Shown here in pieces: positions 6,279 through 57,464 of a DNA stretch of 64,000 nucleotides. The DNA lies in the IMG/VR virus record IMGVR_UViG_3300029288_000079, positions 96,001 to 160,000 of that record, one strand, 5' to 3'. The notes below the pieces were generated by a model. It saw only the letters and a program-made list of their open reading frames with translations, did not search any database and was not told the origin of the DNA. A program made the position numbers and the translations under genes. Origin of the DNA: a virus. Its lineage: Duplodnaviria > Caudoviricetes. How positions within the stretch are numbered: the first letter of the stretch is position 1; every line of letters starts with the position of its first letter.

Positions 6279-6305
6279 AATATGATCTCCTTTAATTATT
6301 TATGA

Positions 6306-18879: not shown

Positions 18880-20316
18880 CTATTGTAAAGAACAAGCACT
18901 ACTAATATCACCATCTTTAATCAACATATCATACATATCCAAAACATTGTCTCGACCTAACTCTTTATAAAGTCTACGCAGATATTCGTCCCTGCCCTCA
19001 TCTTGTTGACGAGCATATTTCTCCAGTACTATAGCATCCTTAAATGCAGGAGAGGCCACAACAGATAGTTCAAAGAATGATAATTCATGATTAATTTCTA
19101 AATTTCTAGCTATAACATATCTGCTACTTGTACCGTTTAGTACTTCTTGTATATCTCGCTGACTAGACAAAATATGGGGTAGCCATTCCGGACGTAAATG
19201 TTCACTATCAAGAAGATCTCTTATTTGATTTGCAGATACACTTGTAAGCCTACCCTTGTTGCCCTGCTTCATATGAGTACAATAATCTGAACTATAACGA
19301 GCTTTTGTATTACAAACTGAGCAAGTAGAATAGTTTACATTACAATTATGGACAATAATACCTCCCGCAACATAACTATGATCATGCTCTACTTCGAAAT
19401 TATATACATTACCATCATAATCAATTTCTTCTATATTGTCAACATAAAATCTGATAAGACTCATAGTACTATCAAACCCCATTACCTTATTATCTATAGC
19501 AAGGTCCCCAGCCTCTATCCAATATACTTCTTCAATTTTATAGTCATAATCAGTAGCCACTGGATGCTCTAAGGTAATAATTATTGGTTTATCACTACTT
19601 GGAGTTATAATTTTTAAAGCCTTACCTTTATATTGTCGAATCATTGTTTCAGTTACCTTTTGTATTGCTCCTGTATGGGATATGACTGAATCTCCCACCG
19701 ATACAGATTCTATTGGCATAGAAGACTTATCGGCCATAGTTACCAAAGCTCCTGGAGCAAAACATCCCATTGAACATGTTAAATTTTGTCCAGTGTCAAT
19801 CATACGAACAATACGTTCTAGTAACTCCTTGGTCTTCCTATCATGACTAGCAGACTTAACTAATTGGGTATCAATTCTCATTAATACTTCTATGTCCCCA
19901 AGAGTTTGGTCTTTAGCTTCTAATATATTTTTACGAAGTACATCTTGCTTTCTAGATAGCAATGATGCCCATTTCTTTTCTTTAACTTCCTCTGGATAAT
20001 TAAATCTATTCAGAAAAGCATCCGGAAGATCACCAATAGAACCACGAAGACCAAGTTTTGAATTATGTTCCGCGTGACTTTTTTTACCAATAAAACTTTT
20101 ATACCCATACCCAGGACGTTCATCTTCAAAATATTCATAAGGAAACGCATCAGCATTTCCGTTGGCCCCTGACTTTTCGAAATTTCCAATGGCTCTAAAA
20201 CGAAGATATCTGAATTCGTTTGTGTCTAATGGTAAAATTCTTTTCTCGTACTTAGCTGCTTGCCTAGATGTCAAAGGCTGAGGTTTAATAATTTGATTAC
20301 ATACTTTAACTAACAT
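18880..20316 (-). CDS. Prohead maturation protease (HK97/herpes-type serine protease) with intein
   Basis: ANGNADAF, HAEHN (His), SMG (Ser), CSVC..YCTH and FFELSVV..PAF motifs; start MLVKV with AGGTGA RBS; located between portal and scaffold. Confidence 0.85.
   Translation of the reverse strand: MLVKVCNQIIKPQPLTSRQAAKYEKRILPLDTNEFRYLRFRAIGNFEKSGANGNADAFPYEYFEDERPGYGYKSFIGKKSHAEHNSKLGLRGSIGDLPDAFLNRFNYPEEVKEKKWASLLSRKQDVLRKNILEAKDQTLGDIEVLMRIDTQLVKSASHDRKTKELLERIVRMIDTGQNLTCSMGCFAPGALVTMADKSSMPIESVSVGDSVISHTGAIQKVTETMIRQYKGKALKIITPSSDKPIIITLEHPVATDYDYKIEEVYWIEAGDLAIDNKVMGFDSTMSLIRFYVDNIEEIDYDGNVYNFEVEHDHSYVAGGIIVHNCNVNYSTCSVCNTKARYSSDYCTHMKQGNKGRLTSVSANQIRDLLDSEHLRPEWLPHILSSQRDIQEVLNGTSSRYVIARNLEINHELSFFELSVVASPAFKDAIVLEKYARQQDEGRDEYLRRLYKELGRDNVLDMYDMLIKDGDISSACSLQ
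19345..19764 (-). mobile_element. Mini-intein (140 aa, no endonuclease) in the protease
   Basis: SMG|CFAPGALV...TLEHP...VYNFEVEHDHSYVAGGIIVHN|C. Confidence 0.9.
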
Positions 20317-22057
20317 TTTTATCACCTGTAGTTTGTAGAAATTGATCCATTGTATATGGAGTAAAATCATTGGCAAATATTACAGCTACATCATCACTTG
20401 TAAAATTATTACATATTAATCTATCTAAACAATCTACAAGCTTATCAAACTCATCAGAAAATTCTTCAGGCTTATAGTCAGGGTTCCAGAATACAACAGC
20501 GTTAGTTCCCGCCCTACCTACAAAAGCATTTTTATAATCATTCAAATCAATATTAATATCAGGTATATCTCTATGTAAATCACCTTTACGACCAAAGCTT
20601 AATTTTCCATTTTCATAAAAAAATGGAATACCTTGAACACCTGCTAGCATAGATTTAGGTATATTAGAGTGTTTTGATAAAGAAGATTGTTTATTATTAG
20701 CAAGCTCTAAATCACTACCAAATATAATATAAGTATACCCATTATGTACTAAAGGTTCCACCTCATATATCATTTTTCCAGTCTTATTATGAACATCTTC
20801 TGGATATATCTCATGAATTACTTTATATTTCTTATGATATTCCAGTCTTTCATATTTATATTTACCTTCTATATCTAATATAATATCATCCCCTTCTTCA
20901 TCAAAAATAGCAGCAGGATCAGTGTCACGAATTTTAGTAACAATATCACCTATAATAAATTCCTGTTCTAAGTCTGGTATATCCCAGCTTAATGATCCGA
21001 ATTTATCCGAAAGATAATCTTGAATACTGCCATAAAATAACTCCTTATGCACACCATTGGCAGTGATTACAACCTTAGTTGCATCTGTCTTACGCAAAAA
21101 CTCTATTATAAAACCCTTCTGATTTCCTATGACACCTTTATTCCAAACTTCAAAATAAATAACCCCCTCTTGCAAATTACTTCGAACCCATCCCTTATTT
21201 AAAAGATACTCTTGAGGTTTAACATTATATTCACTGTTACCTGCATCCATTATACCTGAAGCCTCTTCTTCATAGTTAGGATAGAATTTTAATATCAAAG
21301 GTATAGCAGACTTGGTGTGATCATCCAAAGCATCAAAATTATCCCCCATAGGAGATATCCAACACCTACTATAGTCTGTTGTATATCCATTATAAAGAGT
21401 TATAGGATTCTCAACCTCAATATCTGGAACATCCCAGCTTAAATTCATATTCTGTTTCGGAAAGGAATAAAGTTCAGCTTTGCCAGAATCACCTGTTTTT
21501 CTTGAGTCAGTGATAATATGTTTAGATTTATCTTTTAAAAGATTGTGTCTATAATTAACCATATGTTCACCAACATCTGTTTGAATATTACCATGTATTT
21601 CTAACCCAGGATAATTTTTCTGCACATAATCTACAAACATTTTTTGCATCTGTTTTCCATATCCCTGATTTCTATACTCCGGCAATATATAAAAAGTAAT
21701 TACTTTTATAATTGGCTCATTTAAATCTTTCGAAGATTTTTCTATAGCAAATCCTAACAACCCAACATCTAGACCATTATCAATTAATACTAAAGCATTA
21801 AGGGCATAAACATAGTGTTTAAAAAAATCAGACCCTTTACTACCCCCCTCGGCATCTTTATTTTCTACAAACTCATGCCCCGGCATTCTCTTTACAGTTT
21901 CTTCAGGAAGTACATAATTATCTTTATTACCATAAGGATGCTCCCATGATAACCAACCTCTAAAAAAAGATTGATCTATAGGTTTTAAATTTTTCAATTC
22001 CCATCGAAATCCTATGCCAGAACCATCAAAGCTTAATATATTTCTAACCTTCTCCAT
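20306..22057 (-). CDS. WDI-motif modular protein with N-terminal GNAT acetyltransferase
   Basis: FYILPEYRNQGYGK acetyl-CoA motif; NLSWDV and SLSWDI; WISP..G...H...GWVR and SH3-like modules. Confidence 0.7.
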   Translation of the reverse strand: MEKVRNILSFDGSGIGFRWELKNLKPIDQSFFRGWLSWEHPYGNKDNYVLPEETVKRMPGHEFVENKDAEGGSKGSDFFKHYVYALNALVLIDNGLDVGLLGFAIEKSSKDLNEPIIKVITFYILPEYRNQGYGKQMQKMFVDYVQKNYPGLEIHGNIQTDVGEHMVNYRHNLLKDKSKHIITDSRKTGDSGKAELYSFPKQNMNLSWDVPDIEVENPITLYNGYTTDYSRCWISPMGDNFDALDDHTKSAIPLILKFYPNYEEEASGIMDAGNSEYNVKPQEYLLNKGWVRSNLQEGVIYFEVWNKGVIGNQKGFIIEFLRKTDATKVVITANGVHKELFYGSIQDYLSDKFGSLSWDIPDLEQEFIIGDIVTKIRDTDPAAIFDEEGDDIILDIEGKYKYERLEYHKKYKVIHEIYPEDVHNKTGKMIYEVEPLVHNGYTYIIFGSDLELANNKQSSLSKHSNIPKSMLAGVQGIPFFYENGKLSFGRKGDLHRDIPDINIDLNDYKNAFVGRAGTNAVVFWNPDYKPEEFSDEFDKLVDCLDRLICNNFTSDDVAVIFANDFTPYTMDQFLQTTGDKNVS

Positions 22058-24050: not shown

Positions 24051-27000
24051 TCAAATTAATTCCATGTCTGTATAAAATATAAACCAACTATCCTTTAAAT
24101 GCGTATATGTATCCAATATTACATACCAATAATAAGGGTTTCCACATTGTTTTAATAATGTTCCTTCCGATCCTTTAGCCAAATTAACTTCAGAAATTCC
24201 TATAAAATTAAATACATCATTTTTTAGTCTAACCCTATCTCCAGCTATAAACTCATTTTCTATTATAGGTATATCCCAAGATTGTTTTTGTTCAGAATAT
24301 TGATCCACTATCTCTATATCTTTACTTAACATATATACAGAACCCTCCTCACTTATAAATACATTATATATAGGTTCCTCCAGATATTTTTTAGTTAAGC
24401 CTGCTGGACAAACTCCTTTAGCATCTCTATTTGCTTCCTCAGAATTTTTAAAAATTAAATATATATAACCTATTTTACCAATAATTGATTTTACAAAGTT
24501 AGGGTCTAAATTACCAATAGATTTAGATAATATTTTTACCTTATCCCCAACTTTGGGATCTATATCTGGTATATCCCAAGATAATCTTGGTAAAGCATTA
24601 TCATGCCTTTCCATACAATGAATAGCTAAATGTTGGAGTTCTTGTGTAGGTATACCCTCAGTCTTTTTAGATTCTTTTTTGGGTACTATAGTATCAAAGA
24701 GGTTATATTGAGAAAGGTCGATATTTTGTTCATAATTATCCTCATTAATATCCGATTCAATATAGATATTTCTTATATTATTGTCAATAGCTATCTCACT
24801 TGCACTTATATCACATGCTTCCGGAGCTATATGATCCGGTGTCTCCATATCAATATCAGGTTCTTCAGCTTCAGATTCTGGTATCAAGTTTAATTGAGTC
24901 TCCGGTTCTACAGGATCTACCCGTCTCTGCCTACGCTGTCTAGGCTGTAATTGCTCATAATTTCCTATTGGAATTCCATCCCACCCAATTTCTATTCTAT
25001 AATTAGCATCAAATTTATAAGGGTGCTCAAAATCATAATTTAGAGTATAAAGCATTTCACCCCTTTTACTAAATACACTCCCAGGAACATTAAATTTGTT
25101 TAGCCAGAAATTAATTCTAGATTTTGTTGTAGGTGTATTATAATTTCCATTATCTACTATAATTCTATCCCCATAAAATACTACAACATCAGTAGACCAG
25201 TATCTTATAGCTATACCATCTCCAAATACCCTATGCATTATGGTTTTATGGCCCACTACTCTTTCTGACTTATTCTTAAACCTTCCATTATTAGTTAATA
25301 TATTTTCAATATCTTGCATCTGCCATGCAGGAGTATTAGAAATATCCCATGCTAAAGTATTAATATTATCATCAACTTTAACTAAGGTCATAGGCATGTT
25401 AGATTCCCAAACTACAGCATAAGCTGTTTTAGGATATTTAATTTTATAGACAGGTCTTATATTACTAAAATATTTAGAATCAGCTAGATTTACAGCCCTA
25501 CTTTCTAAATTATCTTCATTATTATTAAAATCATAAATACCAAAATTTTCATAGTTTGGCCCTATATGTAAATAATTATCCCCAAGATGAGTATCATCTT
25601 TCCATACTTGCCCTGGTGCAGCTACTTCTAAGAACTCTTCTAGTGTATTTACAATATGTCCCTCTTGTAAAAATGGTATATCCCAACTATGCATATATCT
25701 TGTTTTATTTGCATTTTCTACTTGAACAAGTTCCATAGGATATGCTTCATCCATTACATAACATCTATCAGATATAGCTACAGATTTCCAATGTCGATCT
25801 TCATTACTTCCAAACCATTGACTAGATCTGATAGATAAAGCTTTACCAGCTTTAATAGCACTGATCTCACTACTATCTTCTGTAACAATAAAAATATTAG
25901 GATTGCTCTTAATATATAAGAATGATCCTAAAGTCTTACTTCTCCAGACCTGCCCGGCTCTTGCATTTTCTCTAAACTCTTTTTGACTATTTGCAATATC
26001 ACCTAATTCAGGATCTATAGATATATTCCAAGCCAATACATCTGTAGCAATTTTACCCTCTGTATCAAAATCATAATCATTAGACTCAATTAATTCTATA
26101 ATAGCTTCTTTAGATGTTAAATATTCATATTCATGTCTCAGCATAGTTAGATAATCGTCACAAAGAGCTTTTTTAAACTCATCCTCAAGATCTTCTATTG
26201 ACCCATCAATCTCATATTCATTGTCCTCTGTTCTTTCACTCTCCAATAATCTTAAACTTTCTTTAAATCTCAGTGCAGTTTTATATGTATCACAAGTATT
26301 ACCATGATCACGCATTATATCTGCAATGCATTCCGACATACTTTGAGTAAGTTCTCCTGAACAATAACTACCCCTATCAATATCGAATCCTGTTATTTTT
26401 AGTCCAATATTTGCAGCATCGTCATATGTACACTCCCACCAATCATAATCTACATTTTTATCATAAAGGTTTTCAATAGCTTTTTCCTGTATATCTTCAG
26501 GTAATTCATTATATTTATATGTAGTATCTTTATCATCGGGATCAAATATAGGAGATATATCCCATGAAAGATTTAAATTATTTCTAAATCTTAAACTACT
26601 AGTAGTTTCTTGTGTATATTCCCATATATCATTTTCTGCTTTAGCTAGTAAACTATCAAAATCAATATTTTTATTAACCTGTTCAGCAGCTCTTTTAGCA
26701 TATTTTATAGCATAAGCAGCATCAATAGCAGCATCAATAGCAGCATCAATAGCAGCATCAATAGCATAAGCAGCAGCATTAGCAACATAATAAGCAGCAG
26801 CATTAGCAACATAAGCAGCAGCATCAATAGCAGCATCATAAGCAGCATCAGCAGCAGCAGTAGCAGCATAACCAGCAGAATAAGCTTTATTTCTATTTTC
26901 TTTACTAGGATTCTTAAGACAAGCTTTTGCTGCCTCTATTGCTGCTCTAGGTCTGCTATCATTAGGATATTTAGATTCAAATATAGGTAGTACAGCTTCT

Positions 27001-30000
27001 GCACAGTAAATAGCATAAAGTAAATTTACTTTTTTAGGATCTACTTCTATAGGTTTAATATCCCAGGAGAGGTTTTCATTTATTAATTTAATATCATTTA
27101 TATTAACAGCCCACCCTAGACGAGAAGTACCTGGATGACTTATTGATAAAAGAGAGAAATTATCCCAATCAACACTAACATACCCATCACCTCTTAATTC
27201 TGTTATAGTACCTTTACTACCCTTCCGTATAGGTTCCACATTATTAACATAATAGGCTTCATCATCACGTATGAATTCTATTCTATCCCCTATTTCGAAT
27301 TCTCCAGGAATTCTAGGTAAGTCCCAGCTTAAACTAGATCCATAAGGCATCAAAGGACGCATATCGTTTACTTTATCAAGAGTTCTATGCAAGCCACGTT
27401 CAAACCACATATCAGAATCATCTTTATCAAGCTTTCTAGCTGCAGGATCCTGCTGTTGTTTCTGATCCGTCGGTCCTCTACGAACCACCTCTTCAGGTTG
27501 TGGATCTAACACACTATCATATTCATCTGAAGCTTTAACCTCAAATGGAAATACACCTACAAATCTTATAGGTTTTAAAGTAGTAATATTAGTAAAACTT
27601 AATTTTCCACCATCAATAATCACCTTAGCTAATTCAGGCTTTGCTAAAAGTTCATTAAAAAATGCTTCAGCATCTTCTTCACTAAATCCAACATACCGAT
27701 ATGCATAATTAATTTTTACAGCTACAACTACTCCATAAGTATTGTAGAGATTAGCGTATGTCATCCACCCTAAGAAACTCTCAGGATTTGATATATCAGG
27801 TTTTGCGGGAGATATATCCCATGACATTTTCTCTGGATCTTTAAATTTATTCAAAAGATTAATTATCACTCTATCATGATCATCTAAATAATCTTTTTTA
27901 GTTATGTAAGATGCCTCCCTATCTGAAAGTGCCAAATTAGAAATTCTAGCTACATCAGCATTTGATGGACTATCATCTATATCTTGATGAATTAGCGTAG
28001 ATGGAAAATACTTTATATCATTTTCTCCGGGCAACCAATCCTTTGGAGTAGTTATATCTAAGTGATCTTCTTGTCTAAAGAATAAAGCCTGCTGATCAAA
28101 CTGATCTTTAGACATATCTATATCTGATTTATCTGTATAAGATTCCGGAGTTGAAACTTTTATAGATGCTTCTCTTATATCTCCATCCTGCAAAGAATCT
28201 TCATTCTTTCTACGATCTAACTCTTGTTCAATCCATTCCCTTAACTTCAGATCAAATACACTAAAACATTGCTCCGCATCCTCTATAATGCTATTCAATG
28301 ACTTTAGTTCTTTTTCAAGGTTCTCTGTAGGTCCTTTTAGTAATTTTACAACCCAATTCTCCTCAGGCTTGGGATCTGAAATATCCCATGCCAACTTACT
28401 AATCTTTTCCTTTACCTTACCTGAATTTAATGATACTTTATACATCTCATCATCCGAGAACTTACAACATATTTCTTTTGCTGACCAACTAAAAGGTTTG
28501 AGATCCTTAAGATTAGCTTTACCATTACCCTCGTATTTTAATGTAACATGGGGTAAGTATCCAAACTTGCGATCAAATTCATCAATTACTGATTCAACGG
28601 CTTCTAAACATTTCTGATAAACCTCGGCACCATCAATGCAATTAACCAATGCAGCAACTGTGTTATCTCCATTATCAAATGTACCTAAACCTGTAAATTT
28701 ACATTTTATCTTCTTATATTGTTTCGCTACTGATTGGATAGCCTTAACAATCTTTTTCTTTTCATTAGGCGTGAGTTTCTTATCCTTCACGCATATCAAT
28801 GTCATATGTAAGTCTTGATCAAGATTACTTATATGATTGAATCTTTTTCTAACAGACTTAGGAAGATCTAAATAAATGAATATCTCATCCTTGAATTCAT
28901 TTTTCTTAGATGCTGTGTTATCTATAGAAGGTATAAATTCTAAATCCTGAGCAATATAAAAAGACCAAGCAACATTATTACGTACTCCAGTTTTGTATTC
29001 TACTGTGTAGTAATGTTGTCCCAAATATTTCTCACCTTGATTCTCATAAAAAGTAGAACTGTTAATAGTATCTTCTGATATCCCCACAATTCTACCAGTA
29101 AGACCTATACCCATAGTAGCAAATTTGGGTCTTGCATACACACTTTTTGATAGTATCTTTACTTTGTCCCCAACTTTAAACTCTGGAGTGTATGATATAT
29201 CCCAAGATAAAGTTTCAAGTATTCCTATATATCGAATAGGTTTAAGCCATGTTAAATAACATTCAAATGTTTCAATATTTTTAGATAGTCTAGCCTCAGT
29301 TCTATTTACTCCTATAGTAGCAGCTACCTCATACCAATTACTAAAACCCATGCCCTGTCCTATTAATTTGATGCCCTGAATTACACAATACTGATTATCA
29401 AAATCTCTTTTACATAACCATCCTATAAAATCTTCGGGAGAACTATTATATGTAGGTACCTCAGGATCCATAGATATATTCCAAGATAAATGTGAGCCTA
29501 TTTTTTCTATGTATCTCTGCCAATAACTCAAGGGTATATCAAAATGAATTTCATTACCATCTTTATTATAGCCTTCAATAATGACCTTACCCCTCCCCCA
29601 GTTAGGTATGTCTTTAGGAAGTTCCCAAACATCACAACCTTCATCAACATAATTATATTTAAAATTAATTTCTACAACCTCAAATTCATTTTTATCAAAA
29701 TCATCAAAGTATTCATTATCAATATCAATTTCAGACGATGATTGAGGTATAAGACTTACCTTATCCCCAACTTTTAATTCTATATCAGGTATATCCCAAG
29801 CCAAAGCTGATCTATAATCTTCCAACATACTATGTAGATGTAATGGAAAATCATATTTTTCATCAACGATAGTAGTTCCAAAATCTTGCTCTATATCCAC
29901 ATCAGATTTATTTTCAGGTTTCATCCATACCGCATTCTTCAAAATAAGCTTATTATCATTTTTTCTCTCATACTCAATAGGATGATTTGGAGATAATACC

Positions 30001-31616
30001 AATGCAAATCCTGACCGACTATACCATATCTGACTTGGTTGTGCTTCTTTTATAAATTTCTCTACAGCAGCTTCATTAGCAGCAGTAGACTCAAAAGATA
30101 ATTTATCATTCACAACTTCTAAAAAATCTTCCCATTTATTGTATGGAAATGTATTTGTAGCTCCATGAAAATGAACATATACTCTTCCTGTGTATAATCC
30201 TCCACAATCATACTCATATTCATGATCAGGCAAAATTTCAATAACTTTTCCTACAGATCCCTGAAAATAAGAATCTACATCAATATTATCTAAATAATTT
30301 CTATCAGCTATGACTCGAACAATATCCCCTTCTTTTATGTTAGTAATAATATCCCAAGACTTCTTATTATTATTAGAATCTATGAGTGTAACCCACCTAT
30401 CATAATCTGGAAGAGGTATGATAAAAGATATCATATCACCCTCTACGTCTTTACCTTCTATACGCATGGCTCCTGCATGTCCTTCGGAAGAAAACCATGA
30501 ACTACTTTTTTTCACAATTGTAACTACAAAATCATTTTTGTCAAAGAGATTACTAAACGTAACAGGATCTGAATATGCTGGATCCTTAATAATCTCATGT
30601 AAATTTTCAGGTATTATGGAAAAGTGGTCCCCAATTTTAGGTACATACAGTTTAATGTTCCATTCTTCAGAAAATCTCAAACTACTAGTAGTTTCTTGTG
30701 TATATTCCCATATATCTTCTTGAGCTTTAGCTAGTAAACTATCAAAATCAATATTCTTATTAGTTCGTTTAGCAGCTTGTCTTGCATATTTTATAGCATT
30801 AGCAGCAAAAAAAGCAGCAGCATTATCAGAAAAAAAAGCAGCAGCATTATCAGCATAATAAGCAGTAGCATAAGCAGCATAATAAGCAGTAGCATTAGCA
30901 GCATAAGCAGCAGTAGCAGCATAACCAGCAGCAGCATTAGCAGCAGAATAAGCAGAATAAACTTTATCTCTATTTTCTTTACTAGGATTCTTAAAACAAG
31001 TTTTTGCTGCTTCTATACATTTTCTAACTCTATCATCATTAGGATATTGCTCTTCATAAATACTTAATACAGCTTCTGCACAGTATATAGCATAAAGTAA
31101 ATTTACTTTTTTAGGATCTACTTCTATAGGTTTAATGTCCCAGGAGAGAGTATTTGAATCTCCTTCAAGATTTATAATATCTGCTTTTATAACAGCCCAA
31201 TGTTTATTTGCATCACCGAAAGCATCTTCACATGTGGGCTGATTATCCCAATCTACAAATACAAAATCCTGGCCCTTCATTAAATCCATAACCACACCCG
31301 TAGAACCATATGAGACTTCACAACTATAATCAATGGTCCCCCAATAAGAATTTCGATCTTTCTTAATCCATTTAACTCTATCACCTATTTCAAACTGGCC
31401 CGGCTTTCTAATCGTAACTATGTCCCATGCACTTACAGGAGTTCCATATTCCTTAACTTTAAATAATTCCTTATCTTCTCTATCCAAATCTGGAAGAGCT
31501 AGATCTGTATTCCAAGGTTCTTGAAAATCTAAGGAATTATATCCAGGGGCAGGAGACTCCTTTTCAAAAGGATCACCTATACTTTTCAATCTATCTATGA
31601 TAACATCTTTTGCCAT
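24051..31616 (-). CDS. 2521 aa WDI-motif polyvalent polyprotein (17 motifs) including a 2H phosphoesterase and two Imm5-like cassettes
   Basis: 17 W[DN][IL] motifs by manual count; LHMTL and PHVTL pair; about eight SH3/KOW-like modules. Confidence 0.8.
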   Translation of the reverse strand: MAKDVIIDRLKSIGDPFEKESPAPGYNSLDFQEPWNTDLALPDLDREDKELFKVKEYGTPVSAWDIVTIRKPGQFEIGDRVKWIKKDRNSYWGTIDYSCEVSYGSTGVVMDLMKGQDFVFVDWDNQPTCEDAFGDANKHWAVIKADIINLEGDSNTLSWDIKPIEVDPKKVNLLYAIYCAEAVLSIYEEQYPNDDRVRKCIEAAKTCFKNPSKENRDKVYSAYSAANAAAGYAATAAYAANATAYYAAYATAYYADNAAAFFSDNAAAFFAANAIKYARQAAKRTNKNIDFDSLLAKAQEDIWEYTQETTSSLRFSEEWNIKLYVPKIGDHFSIIPENLHEIIKDPAYSDPVTFSNLFDKNDFVVTIVKKSSSWFSSEGHAGAMRIEGKDVEGDMISFIIPLPDYDRWVTLIDSNNNKKSWDIITNIKEGDIVRVIADRNYLDNIDVDSYFQGSVGKVIEILPDHEYEYDCGGLYTGRVYVHFHGATNTFPYNKWEDFLEVVNDKLSFESTAANEAAVEKFIKEAQPSQIWYSRSGFALVLSPNHPIEYERKNDNKLILKNAVWMKPENKSDVDIEQDFGTTIVDEKYDFPLHLHSMLEDYRSALAWDIPDIELKVGDKVSLIPQSSSEIDIDNEYFDDFDKNEFEVVEINFKYNYVDEGCDVWELPKDIPNWGRGKVIIEGYNKDGNEIHFDIPLSYWQRYIEKIGSHLSWNISMDPEVPTYNSSPEDFIGWLCKRDFDNQYCVIQGIKLIGQGMGFSNWYEVAATIGVNRTEARLSKNIETFECYLTWLKPIRYIGILETLSWDISYTPEFKVGDKVKILSKSVYARPKFATMGIGLTGRIVGISEDTINSSTFYENQGEKYLGQHYYTVEYKTGVRNNVAWSFYIAQDLEFIPSIDNTASKKNEFKDEIFIYLDLPKSVRKRFNHISNLDQDLHMTLICVKDKKLTPNEKKKIVKAIQSVAKQYKKIKCKFTGLGTFDNGDNTVAALVNCIDGAEVYQKCLEAVESVIDEFDRKFGYLPHVTLKYEGNGKANLKDLKPFSWSAKEICCKFSDDEMYKVSLNSGKVKEKISKLAWDISDPKPEENWVVKLLKGPTENLEKELKSLNSIIEDAEQCFSVFDLKLREWIEQELDRRKNEDSLQDGDIREASIKVSTPESYTDKSDIDMSKDQFDQQALFFRQEDHLDITTPKDWLPGENDIKYFPSTLIHQDIDDSPSNADVARISNLALSDREASYITKKDYLDDHDRVIINLLNKFKDPEKMSWDISPAKPDISNPESFLGWMTYANLYNTYGVVVAVKINYAYRYVGFSEEDAEAFFNELLAKPELAKVIIDGGKLSFTNITTLKPIRFVGVFPFEVKASDEYDSVLDPQPEEVVRRGPTDQKQQQDPAARKLDKDDSDMWFERGLHRTLDKVNDMRPLMPYGSSLSWDLPRIPGEFEIGDRIEFIRDDEAYYVNNVEPIRKGSKGTITELRGDGYVSVDWDNFSLLSISHPGTSRLGWAVNINDIKLINENLSWDIKPIEVDPKKVNLLYAIYCAEAVLPIFESKYPNDSRPRAAIEAAKACLKNPSKENRNKAYSAGYAATAAADAAYDAAIDAAAYVANAAAYYVANAAAYAIDAAIDAAIDAAIDAAYAIKYAKRAAEQVNKNIDFDSLLAKAENDIWEYTQETTSSLRFRNNLNLSWDISPIFDPDDKDTTYKYNELPEDIQEKAIENLYDKNVDYDWWECTYDDAANIGLKITGFDIDRGSYCSGELTQSMSECIADIMRDHGNTCDTYKTALRFKESLRLLESERTEDNEYEIDGSIEDLEDEFKKALCDDYLTMLRHEYEYLTSKEAIIELIESNDYDFDTEGKIATDVLAWNISIDPELGDIANSQKEFRENARAGQVWRSKTLGSFLYIKSNPNIFIVTEDSSEISAIKAGKALSIRSSQWFGSNEDRHWKSVAISDRCYVMDEAYPMELVQVENANKTRYMHSWDIPFLQEGHIVNTLEEFLEVAAPGQVWKDDTHLGDNYLHIGPNYENFGIYDFNNNEDNLESRAVNLADSKYFSNIRPVYKIKYPKTAYAVVWESNMPMTLVKVDDNINTLAWDISNTPAWQMQDIENILTNNGRFKNKSERVVGHKTIMHRVFGDGIAIRYWSTDVVVFYGDRIIVDNGNYNTPTTKSRINFWLNKFNVPGSVFSKRGEMLYTLNYDFEHPYKFDANYRIEIGWDGIPIGNYEQLQPRQRRQRRVDPVEPETQLNLIPESEAEEPDIDMETPDHIAPEACDISASEIAIDNNIRNIYIESDINEDNYEQNIDLSQYNLFDTIVPKKESKKTEGIPTQELQHLAIHCMERHDNALPRLSWDIPDIDPKVGDKVKILSKSIGNLDPNFVKSIIGKIGYIYLIFKNSEEANRDAKGVCPAGLTKKYLEEPIYNVFISEEGSVYMLSKDIEIVDQYSEQKQSWDIPIIENEFIAGDRVRLKNDVFNFIGISEVNLAKGSEGTLLKQCGNPYYWYVILDTYTHLKDSWFIFYTDMELI
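26586..27070 (-). repeat. Imm5-like cassette copy 3
   Basis: SWDIKPIEVDPKKVNLLYAIYCAEAVLPIFESKYPNDSRPRAAIEAAK...QETTSSLRF. Confidence 0.85.
30660..31145 (-). repeat. Imm5-like cassette copy 2 (matches 14808..15293)
   Basis: Direct repeat, 486 nt. Confidence 0.9.
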
Positions 31617-31618
31617 AG

Positions 31619-34600
31619 TTATTCTTCAAATTTTAAACCACCCGATACTTCTGCTTTAGGAGTTTTACCATTATTACCATACCCATAGTCAATACCAAAT
31701 TCTAAACCCTTACTTGGTCTATATCTTTGCTCAGGATATACTGAAGGATGTCTGCATTCTGCACATAGACCTGAAGGATTACCCATCGTATTTCTACCAC
31801 ATTCTCGACATTCATGACTTAATGGAAGATTCATCTCTCTAGCTGAATGAAGCCCCCCTAATCTTTCCATTATACTATCTTCAAAAAAGTTTAGTGAACT
31901 TTCTGCTGATAAATACTGTAGCATCTTATTTATTTTTTCTATTCTCTCAATATTACCCTCGGACTTAGCTTGTGCTAATTCATCTAAATATTCATCCATA
32001 AGATGTTGCTTGTGACGCTCCAAAGATTGAGGAGACATTTGTTGATTATCAAATTTCAAATCATCATACTTTTTACGAGGATCATTATCGGCCAATCCAA
32101 GATCAGGAGTATCTAAAGTTTCCTCCCCCATATTAGGAGACCCTGCAGGAGCCAATTCATTTAAATCTGACTCATCAAATCCAAGGTCATCAATCTCATC
32201 TTTAGGATACTTTGTCTGGGATTTCAAAGCCTCTGGTAGAACAATGCTAACTACATTCTTGATCATACCAATAGCCGTCTCATCCAATGTAAGACCTTTC
32301 AAAATTCTTACTATTGCTGCATTAAAAGCCTCTGGAGACTTTAATAAAAGATCAGAGTTTTGCTTTACATGTTCTACTATTGTAATTATAGATTTCACAT
32401 AGTTTATGATTGGAAGATCCATTGGAATTTTAGAAACCTGTTCCATTTCTTCAGCCAATTTTTGAACTTCTTCAGGTTTAAGATTAAATTCCTCTTGACG
32501 TTTTGTTATACCACTAGCTATCAGCATATTTTTAGGGGCATCTTTAAGATATGGATAATCATTCAATTGCCGATCCACATATCTTAAAACCTTATCTTTA
32601 TAAACAGAACCATACACATCCCCCGAAAATTTAAGATCGGTAGAGCTATAAAGCTGTCTTGTAGAATACTTGTCACTAAAATCTTTACAAGAAGATATAA
32701 AATATTTTCCGGGAGCTGTACTCAATTGATAAACCACAACTATCTGACTATCTACTAATTTTTCCGTTATAATAGTCATAGTGCCCAATGATTTCTTAAA
32801 CTTAGTAAGCTTATTCAGATCTGTTACAGTAGCCACCGAATTAGGATCCTGTTTATCAGAACATTTAACTCCTTTACGCAAATCTAACTTATAAGGTAAT
32901 AGATCTATAGCATACCATGTTTTTGGATAGTTTTGCTTAGTAGTATTACTCCAAATGTCACTACCTGTATCTGGAGTAATATCCATCGCCGGATGAAAAG
33001 GAACTCCACCAAGTCTTAATGCAGCATAGTCATAATAAGGCCTGCGATCCTTATCATTATTTTCTTTCATGCAATCTTCAAATGTAGGCACCCAAACCTC
33101 ATCAACCCCTCCATGCTCAATAGCCCTTTTAATTATCTCAAGCATAACCATTTCAGGCCAGTCTCTAAAATAATTACGAAAAGCTACTATAGCTTTCAAT
33201 GCATATATATCTTGGCTCATCTCTGAATTAAAGCTGACATTATTACCGTTCAATTTAACATAACCACTCTTTGATAACTTATTAAAGGTATCTATAGTGA
33301 ATCCTGAAGATCCATCTAAAACATCTTGTATAGGCACTGATTTATTCATATCTCCTTTAAGGATATCATAAAGTTTTGATATAGCTAATGTCTCAGGAGC
33401 TTTTAACTCAAATGGAATATTTTTACCTTTTACCATATGTTTAAAATAGTTATCACCTCTACCTGCAGCTTGCTGTAAAGCATCGCTTTGATTCTCCACA
33501 TCTAACCATACATTACGTTTTTGAGTGGACCCCTCAACCCCACTATTATCAACTATATAAGTAGGCCTTACTCTAGCCGAAGCAAAAGCGTTCATCCAGT
33601 GTGTATTATGTGGCATCCCCTCAGTAAAATTTCTATTTTTTAAGGTATGGGGAGATGTTAAGTCTATCATATCTACAATACTCTTAACTTCCTGAGGCAA
33701 TCCATTAGGATTGGGTTCCAAAATAATACCAAATGTATTGGGATATTTTGAGCCAGCTTCACCTCCCGGAGGATTTCTCCTGCCTAAAGTAATGTCATCT
33801 ATACGACTCCCATGAGGAAATTGACTTATATCTCTTAATTGTTGCTGAAGTAGTACAGAATCACCTGCTTTACTATCATACTGTGAATTTAATAATATTG
33901 CATATATCTGAGATATCTGCTGTGCATCTAATTGATCATTGGGAAATTGTATTATAATGTTTCTTAAATTATATGCATCTGCAGGTAAAGCATCTAGTAA
34001 TGCCTGCTTGGACATTGTCCCCCTACCCGAATGCTGTTGAAACACTTCTTGAAGTTTCTGTTCTTGCTGAGTTTGTTGCTCGATCTCCATCTGTTCTTTT
34101 GAAGGTTTGTTTTCCTTTGGCCCAGATATCATACCTATAATCTTGCCCATTGATTGAGCTAGCCCCATTGTAGCTAACTCACCACTCTTATTCATTTGTA
34201 TGATGATACCTTTTGCCTCAGGAAGAGTAAGCCATTCAGCTTTCTGACCTGACTGAAGTAAATTCTCTAGATCTTGTTTAATAATTGATTTATCATCAGG
34301 TATTGCAGGCATCTCTTCAGAAAATCTCAAACTACTAGTAGTTTCTTGTGTATATTCCCATATATCATTTTCTGCTTTAATTTTTAAACTATCAAAATCA
34401 ATATTCTTATTAACCTGTTCAGCAGCTCTTTTAGCATATTTTATAGCATAAGCAGCAGCATCAGCATAAGCAGCATCAGTAGCATCAATAGCAGCATTAG
34501 CAGCATAATAAGCAGCAGCATTAGCAACATAAGCAGCAGCATCAATAGCAGCATCATAAGCAGCATCAGCAGCAGCAGTAGCAGCATAACCAGCAGAATA

Positions 34601-36265
34601 AGCTTTATTTCTATTTTCTTTACTAGGATTCTTAAGACAAGCTTTTGCTGCCTCTATTGCTGCTCTAGGTCTGCTATCATTAGGATATTGCTCTTCATAA
34701 ATACTTAATACAGCTTCCACACAGTATATAGCATAAAGTAAATTTACTTTTTTAGGATCTACTTCTATAGGTTTAATATCCCAGGAGAGATTAAGATCCA
34801 AAGAAGATAATTTCCTATTTTTATGCGTAAGAAAACCATGTAAATGCTGTAATAAAGGATCGGCTAATTTACGTTCTGCAGGTGTTAGGGGTAGAGAATT
34901 ATATTGTTTACGCTTCATACCTCCGATAACTAATGCATTAAAATCATCTGTATTATATATAGCCTTCTGAATTACTAATCCAATAGGTTTTCCCAAATTT
35001 TCACTAAAGTCTACATCTTCAGAATTATAACCACCTGAACCAGTAAAGTCTGTACCCTCAACCACATTTCTAGTAAACTTTTTAACATCTAATTGACATC
35101 TAGAAAATGAAGAATTTGTAAGATTATTTTGTGATATAGTACCTTCACTGAATATGCTACCAGTAAAGTTAACTTCTGTAGCCTTACTACCTGTAATAGT
35201 AATATTATTAAATTTACATTTAATCAATTTAGTTCCGGCTGGAATCTCTGTGTTACTTAATGCCTTACTTAGATATTGAGTACCTTTCTCATTGAGCAAT
35301 ACTCTATTAACAATTGTAGAAACAGGTGATAGTGATTTAGATTTTTTAAATAATAAATCTCGTAATATTTTTATAATAACCTTGTCATCCATAGAGTCAA
35401 ACATAATACCTGTAGTAGCTGGATCTATGCTATTAATAAGTTTACTCATGCTTTGCCTTAAAACAAAATCTATCTCCTTATGATCAGTTATATTATTTGT
35501 TTTCAATAGTTCTGTAAGGAATTTACGAATATCATTCTTACCCAAAATATTTCCTGGACCGAACTCAGACAATAAAGATCCTTTAACATCATCAAATCCT
35601 GCACCAAGAAAGCTCCTGGTAATGTCTATAACATTCTCATTGGGTATTAATATATCTCGTAGCTTCGTATGTCGAGAAAATTTAATAGCTCTTACCATAC
35701 AATTAGCAATAACATTATCTATACTACTTGCTAATTTATCACTATATTCATAATTTGGTTCAACATTATTACCATAAGGCTGAACTATTTTGTTATTAAT
35801 TATAGACCAAACCTCGGCCAATAACATAGGAAACTCTTTTTTATGCACTCCATTCTCTAAATCATCATATACTTCTGCATATTCCGGATGACTCTCTTTG
35901 AAATGTTCCCAATAAGGCATTATGGCTTGTACAGCTTTTATAGGGTTCTTAAACTTAGTCATTAATTCTTTATGAGGCTGAGAATAATCTGTAGTAAAGT
36001 TGTTATGTTGCCCCCCTTGAATACCTTCTTTAGCATCTTTAGTTAAACTAAAAGTAACATTATCAATAGTATAGAGATAACCTTTCATAATCATATCATC
36101 TATTATTCTATTAAATTGCAATATAGATGCTGTAGACTTTGCTGTTACTCCTAGCTGCTCTTTAACACTATTAAACATACTTTGTTTTGTTACAGGAATA
36201 GTTTCATTCTGTAATTGCTGAATAACTATTGGAGCAATTTGAGAAATAGTAAATGCCTTATTCAT
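31619..36265 (-). CDS. Large polyvalent virion protein (pentapeptide-like repeats, Imm5-like cassette, E-x-QSD domain)
   Basis: NFTGSIFS...NLTNSSFSRC; NLSWDIKP cassette; ASARV...DVENQSD...FRDWPEMVM...DEVWVPT. Confidence 0.65.
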   Translation of the reverse strand: MNKAFTISQIAPIVIQQLQNETIPVTKQSMFNSVKEQLGVTAKSTASILQFNRIIDDMIMKGYLYTIDNVTFSLTKDAKEGIQGGQHNNFTTDYSQPHKELMTKFKNPIKAVQAIMPYWEHFKESHPEYAEVYDDLENGVHKKEFPMLLAEVWSIINNKIVQPYGNNVEPNYEYSDKLASSIDNVIANCMVRAIKFSRHTKLRDILIPNENVIDITRSFLGAGFDDVKGSLLSEFGPGNILGKNDIRKFLTELLKTNNITDHKEIDFVLRQSMSKLINSIDPATTGIMFDSMDDKVIIKILRDLLFKKSKSLSPVSTIVNRVLLNEKGTQYLSKALSNTEIPAGTKLIKCKFNNITITGSKATEVNFTGSIFSEGTISQNNLTNSSFSRCQLDVKKFTRNVVEGTDFTGSGGYNSEDVDFSENLGKPIGLVIQKAIYNTDDFNALVIGGMKRKQYNSLPLTPAERKLADPLLQHLHGFLTHKNRKLSSLDLNLSWDIKPIEVDPKKVNLLYAIYCVEAVLSIYEEQYPNDSRPRAAIEAAKACLKNPSKENRNKAYSAGYAATAAADAAYDAAIDAAAYVANAAAYYAANAAIDATDAAYADAAAYAIKYAKRAAEQVNKNIDFDSLKIKAENDIWEYTQETTSSLRFSEEMPAIPDDKSIIKQDLENLLQSGQKAEWLTLPEAKGIIIQMNKSGELATMGLAQSMGKIIGMISGPKENKPSKEQMEIEQQTQQEQKLQEVFQQHSGRGTMSKQALLDALPADAYNLRNIIIQFPNDQLDAQQISQIYAILLNSQYDSKAGDSVLLQQQLRDISQFPHGSRIDDITLGRRNPPGGEAGSKYPNTFGIILEPNPNGLPQEVKSIVDMIDLTSPHTLKNRNFTEGMPHNTHWMNAFASARVRPTYIVDNSGVEGSTQKRNVWLDVENQSDALQQAAGRGDNYFKHMVKGKNIPFELKAPETLAISKLYDILKGDMNKSVPIQDVLDGSSGFTIDTFNKLSKSGYVKLNGNNVSFNSEMSQDIYALKAIVAFRNYFRDWPEMVMLEIIKRAIEHGGVDEVWVPTFEDCMKENNDKDRRPYYDYAALRLGGVPFHPAMDITPDTGSDIWSNTTKQNYPKTWYAIDLLPYKLDLRKGVKCSDKQDPNSVATVTDLNKLTKFKKSLGTMTIITEKLVDSQIVVVYQLSTAPGKYFISSCKDFSDKYSTRQLYSSTDLKFSGDVYGSVYKDKVLRYVDRQLNDYPYLKDAPKNMLIASGITKRQEEFNLKPEEVQKLAEEMEQVSKIPMDLPIINYVKSIITIVEHVKQNSDLLLKSPEAFNAAIVRILKGLTLDETAIGMIKNVVSIVLPEALKSQTKYPKDEIDDLGFDESDLNELAPAGSPNMGEETLDTPDLGLADNDPRKKYDDLKFDNQQMSPQSLERHKQHLMDEYLDELAQAKSEGNIERIEKINKMLQYLSAESSLNFFEDSIMERLGGLHSAREMNLPLSHECRECGRNTMGNPSGLCAECRHPSVYPEQRYRPSKGLEFGIDYGYGNNGKTPKAEVSGGLKFEE
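34314..34789 (-). repeat. Imm5-like cassette copy 4 (mosaic of copies 1/2 and 3)
   Basis: LSIYEEQYPND as in copies 1/2, followed by SRPRAAIEAAKACL as in copy 3. Confidence 0.85.
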
Positions 36266-36280
36266 ATTAACCTCTGTAAA

Positions 36281-37720
36281 TTATTTTCTACTTTTATAGT
36301 ATATATCTCTAGACTCATGGGGTAATGCCGTATCTTTTAATTTATTATAAAATGTCATAAACTTTTGTATACAATGCTTAACTTGTGGTACTATAGCTCG
36401 TGATTCTTTATTATGAGAATCATATGCTCCAGTACCAAAATTAAAAGCCTTAACCCCAAGATGTTCCATATGTGCGATATCACTATAGCTACCCTTACCT
36501 ACATGAATACCACTATCTTCTAATAGTTTTTTAGATTCTTCATCTTCGTATTGATACATCACTGCATCTGTTCCTGCACGATCAAACTCAAATATCCATT
36601 TATAGGGTTTTAGAGGTACAAAGTGTTTTGCGGTAGAATTCCCTGATTCTTCATTCTCCGTTAATAGGATATCTGCCTTGACCCCTAACTTAGGCAATAC
36701 ATCTAATATAATATAAGCCCCTAACCTGTCATCAAGCTGAGCATTATGAATCAATTCCTCTTCGTCATGTTGCAAAGTATAATAATGCTGATTATCTTGA
36801 ACAGTATCCAAATGTGCCACAGCCAATATACTAGCCCCCCTATCAATAAAGATATATATACCATCCTCAGTATCCGTAACTTCACCATATTTTTTAAAAT
36901 CTTCTATATTAGATAGAGCTATAGTCTTTAAATCATCATGATTAATCTCAGGTTGTGGCTCTGTATTGTTAAACTCCATGTTAGTATTAGGAGCTCCAAT
37001 ATGTATCTTGTTGTCAAATAATTGAAACTTCTCTGGATTTTTCTCAGCTAATGACTTTACAAATTCAACAAGCTGATCATTTCTAAAACTCATATACTTA
37101 AATACATAATCTTTTAAAATATTTGCAATAGAATTTATAGAAAATGTAGTACCACTATAATATTTTATAAGCCAATCAATAGCTTTTTGTTCATCTATCT
37201 TGTCTTCATGTGGTACATAAGTTTGACCTCTACCAAACCCCCTACCCGAGTTCTGATACTTATATTTAGGTAATCTTTTAGGTTGAGTAGGAACTCTATT
37301 AATATACTTCTCTTTATCATACCCTGGCATCCAGTCAGAACCCTTATCTATAAAATTTGCTACTTCCTCTTCTAAAATAACATAAAGATTTCCATAAACA
37401 ATATTATAATCTATATTATATACTTTTGATATATTATTTATAACATATATCATAGTTTCATCAAATAAATCTATCTTTGCCCAATCATTCAATTCTTCTG
37501 TAGGAATATTATATTGTTCCAAAAAATATTGAATAATATTACGCCACATCCTTACAGATTTAGGGTTTGAGTATAAATAATCATCTTTAGTCTTTTCAGA
37601 CTGCTGAACGGGTTGTTGAGAGGGACCCCATTCTTTCCAAATAAACTCTTTTGAAAATTCCTGTCCTATAGGAAATTCTTTATCTATATCATCACTAATA
37701 TCTATACTATAATCTACCAT
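36281..37720 (-). CDS. Protein with C-terminal M28-family zinc peptidase domain
   Basis: AHLDTV, LDDRLG, ENEESG, EFDR and DSH metal-ligand motifs. Confidence 0.75.
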   Translation of the reverse strand: MVDYSIDISDDIDKEFPIGQEFSKEFIWKEWGPSQQPVQQSEKTKDDYLYSNPKSVRMWRNIIQYFLEQYNIPTEELNDWAKIDLFDETMIYVINNISKVYNIDYNIVYGNLYVILEEEVANFIDKGSDWMPGYDKEKYINRVPTQPKRLPKYKYQNSGRGFGRGQTYVPHEDKIDEQKAIDWLIKYYSGTTFSINSIANILKDYVFKYMSFRNDQLVEFVKSLAEKNPEKFQLFDNKIHIGAPNTNMEFNNTEPQPEINHDDLKTIALSNIEDFKKYGEVTDTEDGIYIFIDRGASILAVAHLDTVQDNQHYYTLQHDEEELIHNAQLDDRLGAYIILDVLPKLGVKADILLTENEESGNSTAKHFVPLKPYKWIFEFDRAGTDAVMYQYEDEESKKLLEDSGIHVGKGSYSDIAHMEHLGVKAFNFGTGAYDSHNKESRAIVPQVKHCIQKFMTFYNKLKDTALPHESRDIYYKSRK

Positions 37721-42868: not shown

Positions 42869-43648
42869 TTATTCATAGATTGGCTGGGAACTAACCGCCT
42901 CTATTTGCCATGTATTAGGTATATGAGTTAGACTATATGCACCCCCAACCATGGGCTTAAGTACTGTATGCTTTAAGCCTTGTGGAATTGTTATTTTTAC
43001 TACATCCCATATTATATCACTAAAATGTAAAACATCTCTATATGTATCCCAAACGAATACATACTTGCTACTGAAATGCTGATCCTCCGGAAAGATACCC
43101 ATTTCTATTTTGTGGTCCTTAGGAATTACTGTATAAACTTCATCATGATATAAATTAGACTGAATATTAGAGGCTTCTACTTCTGAGAAATCATCGGGTT
43201 CTATAATTTCTATAAGCGTTGCTGGAAGACTATCTTTAGTTATTAAACACCAATCGCTAGGATTATTAGGACTATGAAATTTACTAACAGCCCGATAGGC
43301 AAGTTCTGCAATAGAACATTGTAAAACTTGTTCATCTGCAGATATATTAATATTTACACTACCCTGATTTGCAGATATAACAAGATACTTTAAATTGCCA
43401 AAGGTAGGATTCTCTAGTACCCATACTTGCCCAGGTTTTAAAGCATCCCTTAATTCTTCAATAGTATTTACAACCATACCTATCTCAGAATCAACAGGTT
43501 TAATATCCCAAGATAGTTTCATCTCTGAAGATGGAATAACAACACGCTGATCCTCAAAGTTAAGATCATCATGCTTTACAATGTCCGGTTGTTCTAAGGG
43601 TATTATCTTATCTATGTCAGATTGCTGTAGGTGTGACTTCTGATCCAT
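42869..43648 (-). CDS. WDI-motif protein with one PGQVW module
   Basis: MKLSWDIKP...VNTIEELRDALKPGQVW. Confidence 0.65.
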   Translation of the reverse strand: MDQKSHLQQSDIDKIIPLEQPDIVKHDDLNFEDQRVVIPSSEMKLSWDIKPVDSEIGMVVNTIEELRDALKPGQVWVLENPTFGNLKYLVISANQGSVNINISADEQVLQCSIAELAYRAVSKFHSPNNPSDWCLITKDSLPATLIEIIEPDDFSEVEASNIQSNLYHDEVYTVIPKDHKIEMGIFPEDQHFSSKYVFVWDTYRDVLHFSDIIWDVVKITIPQGLKHTVLKPMVGGAYSLTHIPNTWQIEAVSSQPIYE

Positions 43649-56868: not shown

Positions 56869-57464
56869 GACAATGGAACTCCATCTATTGCATCTAACAT
56901 CATAATCCACTGATCTATTATTTCTAATTTTTTATCTATGGCTGTAAGAGCATTAGCCGCATGTTTAGATACTGATGTTGCAGCAACAATCTTATATTCA
57001 ATATCATCAAGCTTATCTTTCAGATCAGAATAACTCTTCACACCATTAAAGAACTCCGTGTCCCCGGTCCCCATATCTAGATAGGAAGGTATGGCTACAG
57101 GCAAGGATCCAATCAAACTATTAAGAAAGTCCGATATTAATTTCAATGTTCCTGCATCGGCCCCACTACTATCTGTACCACTCAATGGTATTGAATTTAT
57201 AATAGTATTTACTAACCCACTATTAGGTGTTAGAAGAGAATTTACAACTAATCTTTGCTTCTGTAATGCGTTAGAAACTACATCACAAGATTGTATATTA
57301 AACAATATTGTACTGCGAGTACTCATCAATAAGGAAGCTTTCTGAGTAAATAAGAATGATTTAATACCCACTCTTAATGGTCTCGACAGATTGATGAAAA
57401 ACTGAACCAATCTAGCATCAATCCCAGTAGACTCAGCTATTGTTTTTGCTTGAGTGCTTGACAT
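56865..57464 (-). CDS. Hypothetical helical protein
   Basis: Likely start MSSTQAK with GGAG RBS, overlapping the upstream stop. Confidence 0.55.
   Translation of the reverse strand: MSSTQAKTIAESTGIDARLVQFFINLSRPLRVGIKSFLFTQKASLLMSTRSTILFNIQSCDVVSNALQKQRLVVNSLLTPNSGLVNTIINSIPLSGTDSSGADAGTLKLISDFLNSLIGSLPVAIPSYLDMGTGDTEFFNGVKSYSDLKDKLDDIEYKIVAATSVSKHAANALTAIDKKLEIIDQWIMMLDAIDGVPLS

Follow-up and report, generated by a model that had tools for sequence, protein, structure and literature searches.

Two groups of described systems come close to the one reported here. Phage polyvalent proteins have been proposed to be transferred with the DNA and released after injection (Iyer, Burroughs, Anand, de Souza and Aravind 2017; PMC5512222), and prohead proteases process proteins of the phage head: T4 gp21 cleaves after L/I-x-E, where the 10-residue targeting leaders of the internal proteins end (PMC9026906), and SPN3US gp245 cleaves after A-x-E (PMC10052503). 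Here, we describe a set of ten head-region genes in a tailed phage (Caudoviricetes) that encode strings of small modules separated by a short, conserved junction peptide, which we term the joint. The largest product is P0001, a protein of 2521 amino acids (aa) encoded by an uninterrupted open reading frame (ORF) on the minus strand at positions 24051-31616 of the DNA stretch that we analyzed, a window of 64,000 nucleotides (nt) that corresponds to positions 96,001 to 160,000 of IMG/VR virus record IMGVR_UViG_3300029288_000079, a 181,733-bp record rated complete. We show that the joint is selected as a peptide and lies between autonomous modules, and we lean modestly towards a model in which these genes encode head-packaged cargo polyproteins that a phage protease would cut at the joints. 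Literature searches, both for strings of the SWDI type and for motifs at which phage polyproteins are cleaved, returned nothing describing such a system.

A junction peptide recurs in ten head-region genes

P0001 is divided into 18 segments by 17 W[DN][IL] joints and carries two further, degenerate joints, for a total of 18-20 modules from at least 10 families in a single ORF. The joints are spaced 87-272 aa apart, are preceded by S or A at 16 of the 17 sites, and conform to a consensus K/T-L-[SA]-W-[DN]-I-[PSK] whose upstream residues are hydrophilic. Residue shuffles of P0001 (n=5000) yield a mean of 1.36 W[DN][IL] sites and a maximum of 7, against the 17 observed. The degenerate joints are KLSFES at aa 505 and ACDIS at aa 2267. 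KLSFES occupies the place usually taken by LSWDI in front of PGQVW-type modules, and together with its orthologous versions, KLSFEA and KKSFET, it keeps an aromatic residue where the joint has Trp.

Across the whole genome, the pattern [SAG]W[DN][IL] occurs at 47 sites, all in coding frames and none on the non-coding strand; 46 of these fall in the ten head-region ORFs, with one stray site elsewhere. The ten ORFs sum to 9431 aa, or 15.6% of the genome. A 164.6-kb relative (G002:C67) contains 50 sites when the pattern is widened to [SAGT]W[DN][ILVF], again on the coding strand only and mostly in head-region ORFs at 13-63 kb. Ser at the joints is encoded by both TCN (25) and AGY (11) codons and Leu by TTA, TTG, CTC, CTT and CTA; this mixture of Ser codon families and the varied Leu codons indicate selection on the peptide rather than on a nucleic-acid site, and rule out the joint as a DNA- or RNA-level signal.

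The joint is not confined to the interior of the chains. Its Trp lies at residues 6-13 in five of the ORFs, and three others begin with leaders of 46-72 aa; the leaders of the giant ORF and of the 877-aa ORF are conserved in orthologues. No HExxH motif occurs in any of the ten joint-bearing ORFs, which rules out an embedded zincin peptidase and means that any enzyme cutting these chains would have to work in trans. Pfam and PHROG scans likewise detect no peptidase family in P0001, and a tblastn search with P0001 against 50,697 deposited phage records returned no match.

The gene immediately downstream of P0001 (22044-24032, minus strand) encodes the portal protein, as judged by its match to phrog_16240 (E 2e-56) and its 30% identity to portal gp14 of Bacillus phage G. 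Terminase, protease-candidate, scaffold-like and capsid genes complete the surroundings, with the capsid gene (39% identical to phage G gp27) about 18 kb beyond the portal.

The joint lies between folded modules

The modules of P0001 are diverse, and those that can be assigned belong to unrelated kinds. Imm5_like (PF21805) is matched twice (E 1e-15; 58.3 bits, compared to a Pfam gathering cut-off of 25), and a 2H phosphoesterase (PF13563), for which the cut-off is 27, scores 28.1 bits and carries the two expected HxT motifs (HMTL at aa 937 and HVTL at aa 1023). Three PGQVW modules and two IGW modules form paralogue families. For about eight barrel-type modules, marginal matches to NHase_beta_C (E 1e-3) and DUF4314 (E 0.07) and a shared x-[VI]-G-D-x-V pattern weakly suggest an SH3/KOW-like label. 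Pfam searches at E up to 1 with six unassigned modules and with P0011, a 175-aa stand-alone homologue of one module (A12; modules are numbered A00 to A17 from the N-terminus, Table 1), returned nothing but Fic in one module of an orthologue (orthologue B, below).

A joint precedes modules as different as the helical Imm5-like cassettes, the beta-rich PGQVW modules, the barrels and the 2H domain, and independent boundaries place it outside all of them. The Pfam match to Imm5_like opens three residues past WDI, and stand-alone Imm5-like proteins start (M-K-S-D-P-x-K-V) at the position right after the joint. P0011 corresponds to the interior of A12, from about 10 aa past SWDI to about 5 aa before the next AWNI. 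We generated AlphaFold (AF2) models of one PGQVW module, from an 18-sequence alignment, and of the tandem modules at aa 1850-2100. The single-module model has a predicted local distance difference test (pLDDT) score of 82, with residues 1-17 in coil. The tandem model resolves two domains rich in beta structure, whose block-mean pLDDT lies mostly at about 60-93, and has a predicted template modeling (pTM) score of 0.47, leaving the mutual orientation of the domains not fixed; pLDDT falls below 50 only at residues 14-16, 120-132 and 236-251, which are the three joints. Because unrelated modules follow the joint, and because it falls outside Pfam and stand-alone protein boundaries and in low-pLDDT linkers, it is ruled out as part of one domain fold. 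An invariant Trp within what the models predict to be a flexible, exposed linker instead points to a trans-acting partner that reads it. The modeled PGQVW fold itself found no Foldseek match in the PDB with E below 0.26, and its best VIA-align Z score among 48,161 chains was 4.8, giving no assignment.

An original prediction made from the letters of this DNA alone had pictured P0001 as a flagship: one ORF of 2521 aa directly upstream of the portal gene, with 17 W[DN][IL] motifs plus the degenerate KLSFES and PEACDIS, and with two Imm5-like cassettes, a 2H phosphoesterase, three PGQVW modules and two IGW modules among its parts. Our analysis bears out each of these features. The picture of a single flagship gene needs revision, however, as the joint is spread over ten head-region genes and not one.

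Joint peptides differ between lineages

When 1.84 billion proteins were searched with a profile of the PGQVW module, only 49 representatives were retrieved, and the majority are long chains of many modules. The peptide at the joints before these homologous modules is uniform within a protein and differs by lineage. It reads SWD[VF] in one orthologue of P0001 (orthologue C, below), K[LTV][SA]WE[VM] at 12 joints of P0040, LSWK[THN]V at 14 joints of P0039, K[LF]SW[QAK]I in P0048, P0056 and P0071, and is of the type NILNLPPP in P0052. P0045 carries DLA[EW] at 15 joints, 14 of them DLAE and one DLAW (ADLAWD), typically in the form [AS]-D-L-A-E. The lineages of P0039, P0040 and P0045 are known from ENA and Logan proteins, and scans of IMG/VR and JGI data with P0039 and P0040 gave no match.

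Common to these joint peptides is a core of L-small-[W/E]. This core parallels the L/I-x-E rule of T4 and the A-x-E rule of SPN3US, and by this analogy a cut would be placed after the Trp.

Modules appear to be exchanged at joints

Two orthologues of P0001 (A) were compared with it: orthologue B, with 2858 aa (L002:1411-9987, from IMG/VR; portal 81% identical), and orthologue C, with 2664 aa (L003:10001-17995, on an NCBI metagenome-assembled genome (MAG) contig). All three share a colinear backbone, defined by reciprocal best hits, of leader (A00), putative SH3 plus PGQ (A04), putative SH3 plus 2H (A07), X8 (A08), Y12 (A12), Z15/Fic (A15) and the terminal putative SH3 barrel; the counterparts of A15 in B and C bear a Fic domain. 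Around this backbone, whole modules differ. Seven of the 18 A modules lack a counterpart in B, and about 11 of the 23 B segments lack one in A. At least three changes of order are apparent, involving A13/C13 and B09, B01 and C15, and A04-A05 and C02-C01. Of 146 homology breakpoints, 83 (57%) fall no more than 12 aa from a joint Trp, compared to about 17.5% expected by chance, and a substantial minority fall inside modules.

The same behavior is seen between genes of one genome. Five Imm5-like cassettes are spread over four genes, and their DNA homology starts abruptly at (CTC) TCC TGG GAY ATT and ends at ...TTG AGA TTT before the next joint. In the clearest pair, about 480 nt are 100% identical between 14814-15293 and 30666-31145 (minus strand), and each breakpoint falls inside a joint. 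Three further copies, all mosaic, are found at 26568-27068, at ~34300-34786 and past the window end. This pattern suggests recent gene conversion. The sequence that comes after the joint in ORF 20306-22057 stands alone in the relative that carries B, as a 237-aa gene whose joint is at residue 18.

The gain, loss and transposition of whole modules, combined with the copied cassettes, imply that the arrays are expandable and that modules travel as units; sequence comparison thus supports exchange at joints. The original prediction had proposed an expandable array of cassettes translated as one precursor, to be checked by comparing orthologues for gain, loss and reordering of modules at motif boundaries, and had named a fixed colinear order with indels unrelated to the motifs as the outcome that would speak against it. 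Orthologues B and C instead combine a colinear backbone with whole-module differences and breakpoints concentrated near joints. Exchange at joints and translation from one ORF therefore stand, while cutting of the precursor and its place inside the head are something we infer.

The order of methyltransferase polyprotein, M28-like peptidase, pentapeptide polyprotein, giant polyprotein and portal is kept in L003 and in the 164.6-kb contig, which is related to B (portal 81% identical); in L003, the place of the portal is taken by a 1529-aa ORF. Just upstream of the polyprotein cluster, L003 encodes a 165-aa protein (682-1179) with the PCRF and RF-1 domains of peptide chain release factors. Several close relatives (L006/G002:C67, P0010 and P0019) are filed in public MAG bins labeled 'Candidatus Omnitrophota bacterium', which holds the 164.6-kb contig, and 'Candidatus Pacearchaeota archaeon'; these labels probably reflect binned phage contigs and are not reliable host calls.

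Candidate proteases and neighboring genes

Two genes near the polyproteins are candidate processing enzymes (Table 1). ORF 18880-20376 resembles gp19 of phage G in three collinear stretches (phmmer E 2e-6), and gp19 has been named a head maturation protease (PMC12484599). The ORF is interrupted at aa ~202-344 by a mini-intein (PDB intein matches, E 2e-6 to 1e-4), which sits three residues after CSMG and is followed by a zinc-ribbon-like CxxC...CxH segment common to phage G gp19. The second candidate, ORF 36281-37720, has a C-terminal domain that resembles phage M28/M42-type peptidases; its Atlas scores are below 0.8, making the assignment a lead. Its putative metal-ligand motifs (HLD, DDR, ENEE and DSH) look intact, and its place among the polyprotein genes is kept in both relatives checked, L003 and G002:C67. 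It also has a 260-aa N-terminal region without known function, and its Atlas neighbors are almost all viral, consistent with a widespread phage family. Direct comparison with the phage G gp2 'zinc peptidase' gave no match.

Upstream of decoration-like and capsid genes, 7033-8862 (minus strand) encodes a 609-aa Glu/Lys-rich protein with no family match, which we call scaffold-like on the basis of position and composition. The major capsid gene (4004-6299, minus strand) consists of three or more separate coding pieces (~6111-6299, 5786-5935 and 4004-4735), with a 320-aa LAGLIDADG-type ORF (4702-5664) within the stretch between pieces, and probably holds group I introns. The large terminase (52497-55667, minus strand; 1056 aa) contains a large DnaB-type intein at aa ~103-528 (E 1e-22 to PDB 1mi8) that probably bears an endonuclease insert. 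Between polyprotein and scaffold-like genes lies the sole plus-strand ORF among window ORFs of at least 150 aa (9214-9924), a Cys-rich protein with CxxC pairs that may be a homing-endonuclease-type insertion.

Table 1. Positions in the window of the joint-bearing ORFs other than P0001, the candidate proteases, and the modules of P0001
Feature	Positions	Strand	Remarks
790-aa polyprotein	10877..13249	-	5 joints, first at residue 10
664-aa polyprotein	14202..16196	-	4-5 joints, first at residue ~11
583-aa protein	20306..22057	-	GNAT, one joint, barrel
1548-aa polyprotein	31619..36265	-	pentapeptide repeats, Imm5-like; 1 joint
877-aa polyprotein	37722..40355	-	PGQVW, methyltransferase; 4 joints
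259-aa protein	42869..43648	-	46-aa leader, one joint, PGQVW
420-aa polyprotein	57464..58726	-	5 joints, first at residue 6 (MKSLAWDIS)
617-aa polyprotein	62077..63930	-	5-6 joints, first at residue 13
1152-aa joint-bearing ORF	starts 63939, extends past window end		
Candidate prohead protease with mini-intein	18880..20376	-	first candidate cutter; weak match to phage G gp19
M28/M42-like metallopeptidase	36281..37720	-	second candidate cutter or trimmer; phrog_4191, Atlas leads
A00, N-terminal leader, 62 aa	31431..31616	-	63-77% conserved in both orthologues; ends at first joint VSAWDI
A01, small barrel-type (phrog_7871)	31146..31430	-	paralogue of A10 and A17; no counterpart in B/C
A02, Imm5-like cassette	30666..31145	-	~480 nt 100% identical to copy in ORF 14202-16196
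A03, barrel-type	30360..30665	-	variant opening joint EEWNI; paralogue of A05
A04, barrel plus PSQIW (PGQVW-type)	29802..30359	-	KLSFES between the two (30087-30104); orthologous to B03, C02
A05, barrel-type	29487..29801	-	orthologous to B05
A06, IGW	29208..29486	-	paralogue of A09 and of module 1 of ORF 10877
A07, barrel plus 2H phosphoesterase	28392..29207	-	core aa 933-1034, HMTL/HVTL; orthologous to B08, C05
A08, no family assigned	27825..28391	-	orthologous parts in B11/B13 and C06/C07
A09, IGW with acidic tail	27330..27824	-	paralogue comparison
A10, barrel-type	27069..27329	-	DUF4314-like, weak
A11, second Imm5-like cassette	26568..27068	-	Pfam and DNA comparison
A12	26034..26567	-	175-aa stand-alone homologue P0011
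A13, PGQVW	25689..26033	-	paralogue family, model
A14, PGQVW	25353..25688	-	AF2 pLDDT 82; no known fold matched
A15 (phrog_554), acidic tail	24582..25352	-	ACDIS joint at 24804-24818; B/C counterparts bear Fic domain
A16, barrel-type	24282..24581	-	paralogue comparison
A17, C-terminal barrel-type	24054..24281	-	orthologous to last module of B

Discussion

Our data show that the giant ORF is intact, that the joint is far more frequent than expected and is selected as a peptide, that it lies in linkers between autonomous modules which are exchanged there, and that its sequence is specific to each lineage. To account for these observations, we slightly favor a model in which the ten head-region genes encode cargo polyproteins, strings of small and independently folding modules on flexible junction peptides. 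The chains would be produced late and loaded into the prohead beside the portal. There, a phage protease would cut the joints, most likely right after the Trp (P3-P2-P1 = L-[SA]-W, in analogy to the T4 rule), with the intein-containing prohead protease candidate as the first and the M28/M42-like protein as the second candidate cutter. About 20 small proteins would thereby be freed to enter the host with the DNA, where several may act as counter-defense factors. The joint would double as an in-frame place of exchange within and between genes, giving rise to expandable arrays.

That the chains are packaged, that they are cleaved, at which bond and by which enzyme, and what the modules do are all matters that we infer. 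Several points weigh against this model. Trp at P1, the residue before the cut, has no precedent among the characterized prohead proteases that we compared. The prohead protease identity of ORF 18880-20376 is weak, and Pfam S77 and S78 searches of the genome gave no match. M28/M42-type (MH-clan) enzymes are mostly exopeptidases. Neither the capsid protein nor the portal nor the protease candidate has the joint motif, and the scaffold-like protein has a single near-match (SYWDIT at aa 271-276, kept in the relative carrying B); the missing sites in shell and core proteins weaken the assignment of the joint to a prohead protease. Finally, conservation of a linker peptide would be explained just as well by binding as by cutting.

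This last point leads to the strongest alternative, which we nonetheless judge unlikely: that the chain stays uncut, as beads on a string, and that the junction peptide is a repeated handle for a binding partner. The scaffold or portal could offer a receptor for packaging, a chaperone could bind the peptide, or it could signal unfolding or threading at ejection. If the joint were read by a partner in this way, every module, the first included, should bear one, and in five ORFs the joint does stand so close to the N-terminus that cutting would take off only 5-12 residues. Its location in exposed linkers of the model, the lack of sites in capsid and portal, and the lack of an embedded protease domain also fit an uncut chain. 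However, a 280-kDa string of 20 folded domains would be hard to fit through the tail channel, and homologous modules occur as free small proteins. Moreover, some 47 copies with a strict L-small-W/E core, resembling known cleavage rules, suit a protease site better than a handle.

Alternatively, the chains may be cut in the infected cell instead of the prohead, by the M28/M42-like peptidase or by a host protease, an option that we consider improbable. Release after injection is what has been proposed for polyvalent proteins (PMC5512222). The M28-like gene stands among the polyprotein genes with its place conserved and its metal-ligand motifs apparently intact, and the head shell proteins lack the motif that a prohead enzyme would be expected to share. 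Yet a joint that is specific to each lineage favors a phage-encoded reader over a host one, the M28/M42 assignment is itself a lead, and the exopeptidase habit of the MH clan fits poorly with cutting inside a chain. Very improbable, in our estimation, is that the joint has no trans-acting reader and persists as a recombination joint (TGGGAYAT), a by-product of copy-and-paste: homology breakpoints do cluster at joints, and both ends of the identical Imm5 cassette lie inside them, but the shared stretch is only ~8 nt, Ser and Leu codon families vary as expected for selection on the peptide, old orthologous joints retain the peptide while their flanks diverge, each distant lineage has a peptide of its own, repeated uniformly at 12-15 joints, and the invariant Trp in a disordered linker is left unexplained.

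Within the cargo polyprotein model, we put forward one further idea tentatively, with the odds against it: a lineage-specific junction-peptide code of large uncultured phages, here L-S-W|D-I, in which the P1 preference of a head protease has switched from Glu to Trp, and in which one peptide serves both as cut signal and as in-frame joint for copying cassettes among about ten genes, thereby reshuffling the injected counter-defense set. The model predicts a prohead-type protease with unusual Trp specificity. Exchange at a common joint may diversify an injected anti-defense set much faster than core genes, consistent with relatives whose portals are 81% identical and whose modules are in many cases unshared. 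The junction peptide also provides a simple sequence rule by which metagenomes could be searched for cargo of this kind and for the limits of its modules, and most of the cargo modules are without a known fold.

Compared to known systems, P0001 fits the concept of polyvalent proteins, which combine 2-15 or more unrelated domains and are encoded in late, portal/MuF neighborhoods: it is a very long multidomain phage protein in a late/virion neighborhood, next to the portal gene, with predicted delivery alongside the DNA and possible proteolytic release. Its domain content is also reminiscent of theirs, with 2H in P0001, Fic in orthologues B and C, and GNAT and methyltransferase domains in sister ORFs. 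Unlike polyvalent proteins, the chains described here have no zincin metallopeptidase (MPTase) hub, which is common though not obligatory there, or any other embedded peptidase, and most modules of P0001 are small domains without known function. A lineage-specific junction peptide at each boundary, which we did not find in PMC5512222, further sets the present system apart, as does its spread over ten cassette-exchanging genes.

In its way of working, the system would be most like the head cargo of T4 (gp21, IPI-III and Alt) and of phiKZ (gp175) and SPN3US, whose inner-body and ejection proteins are processed, with a very short consensus site and a diverse, fast-evolving set of putative cargo. 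The five ORFs with a joint at residues 6-13 recall the capsid targeting sequences of T4 (10 residues; PMC9026906), and the DLAE joints of the P0045 lineage resemble the T4 site itself. In contrast to these phages, the putative P1 residue here is Trp and not Glu, the sites part up to 20 functional modules per chain rather than propeptides, the shell and portal lack the site, and the protease is weakly identified and split by an intein.

Finally, a single translation product with conserved junctions between separately functional units is a design known from RNA-virus polyproteins and from the herpesvirus assemblin-scaffold precursor. Here, by contrast, the host of the design is a double-stranded DNA (dsDNA) tailed phage, no protease module is detected in the chain, the modules would be accessory cargo and not replication or capsid proteins, and cleavage is predicted. 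If the joints are indeed cut, this dsDNA phage would devote 15.6% of its genome to polyproteins in the style of RNA viruses, and dozens of small proteins would be delivered along with its DNA.

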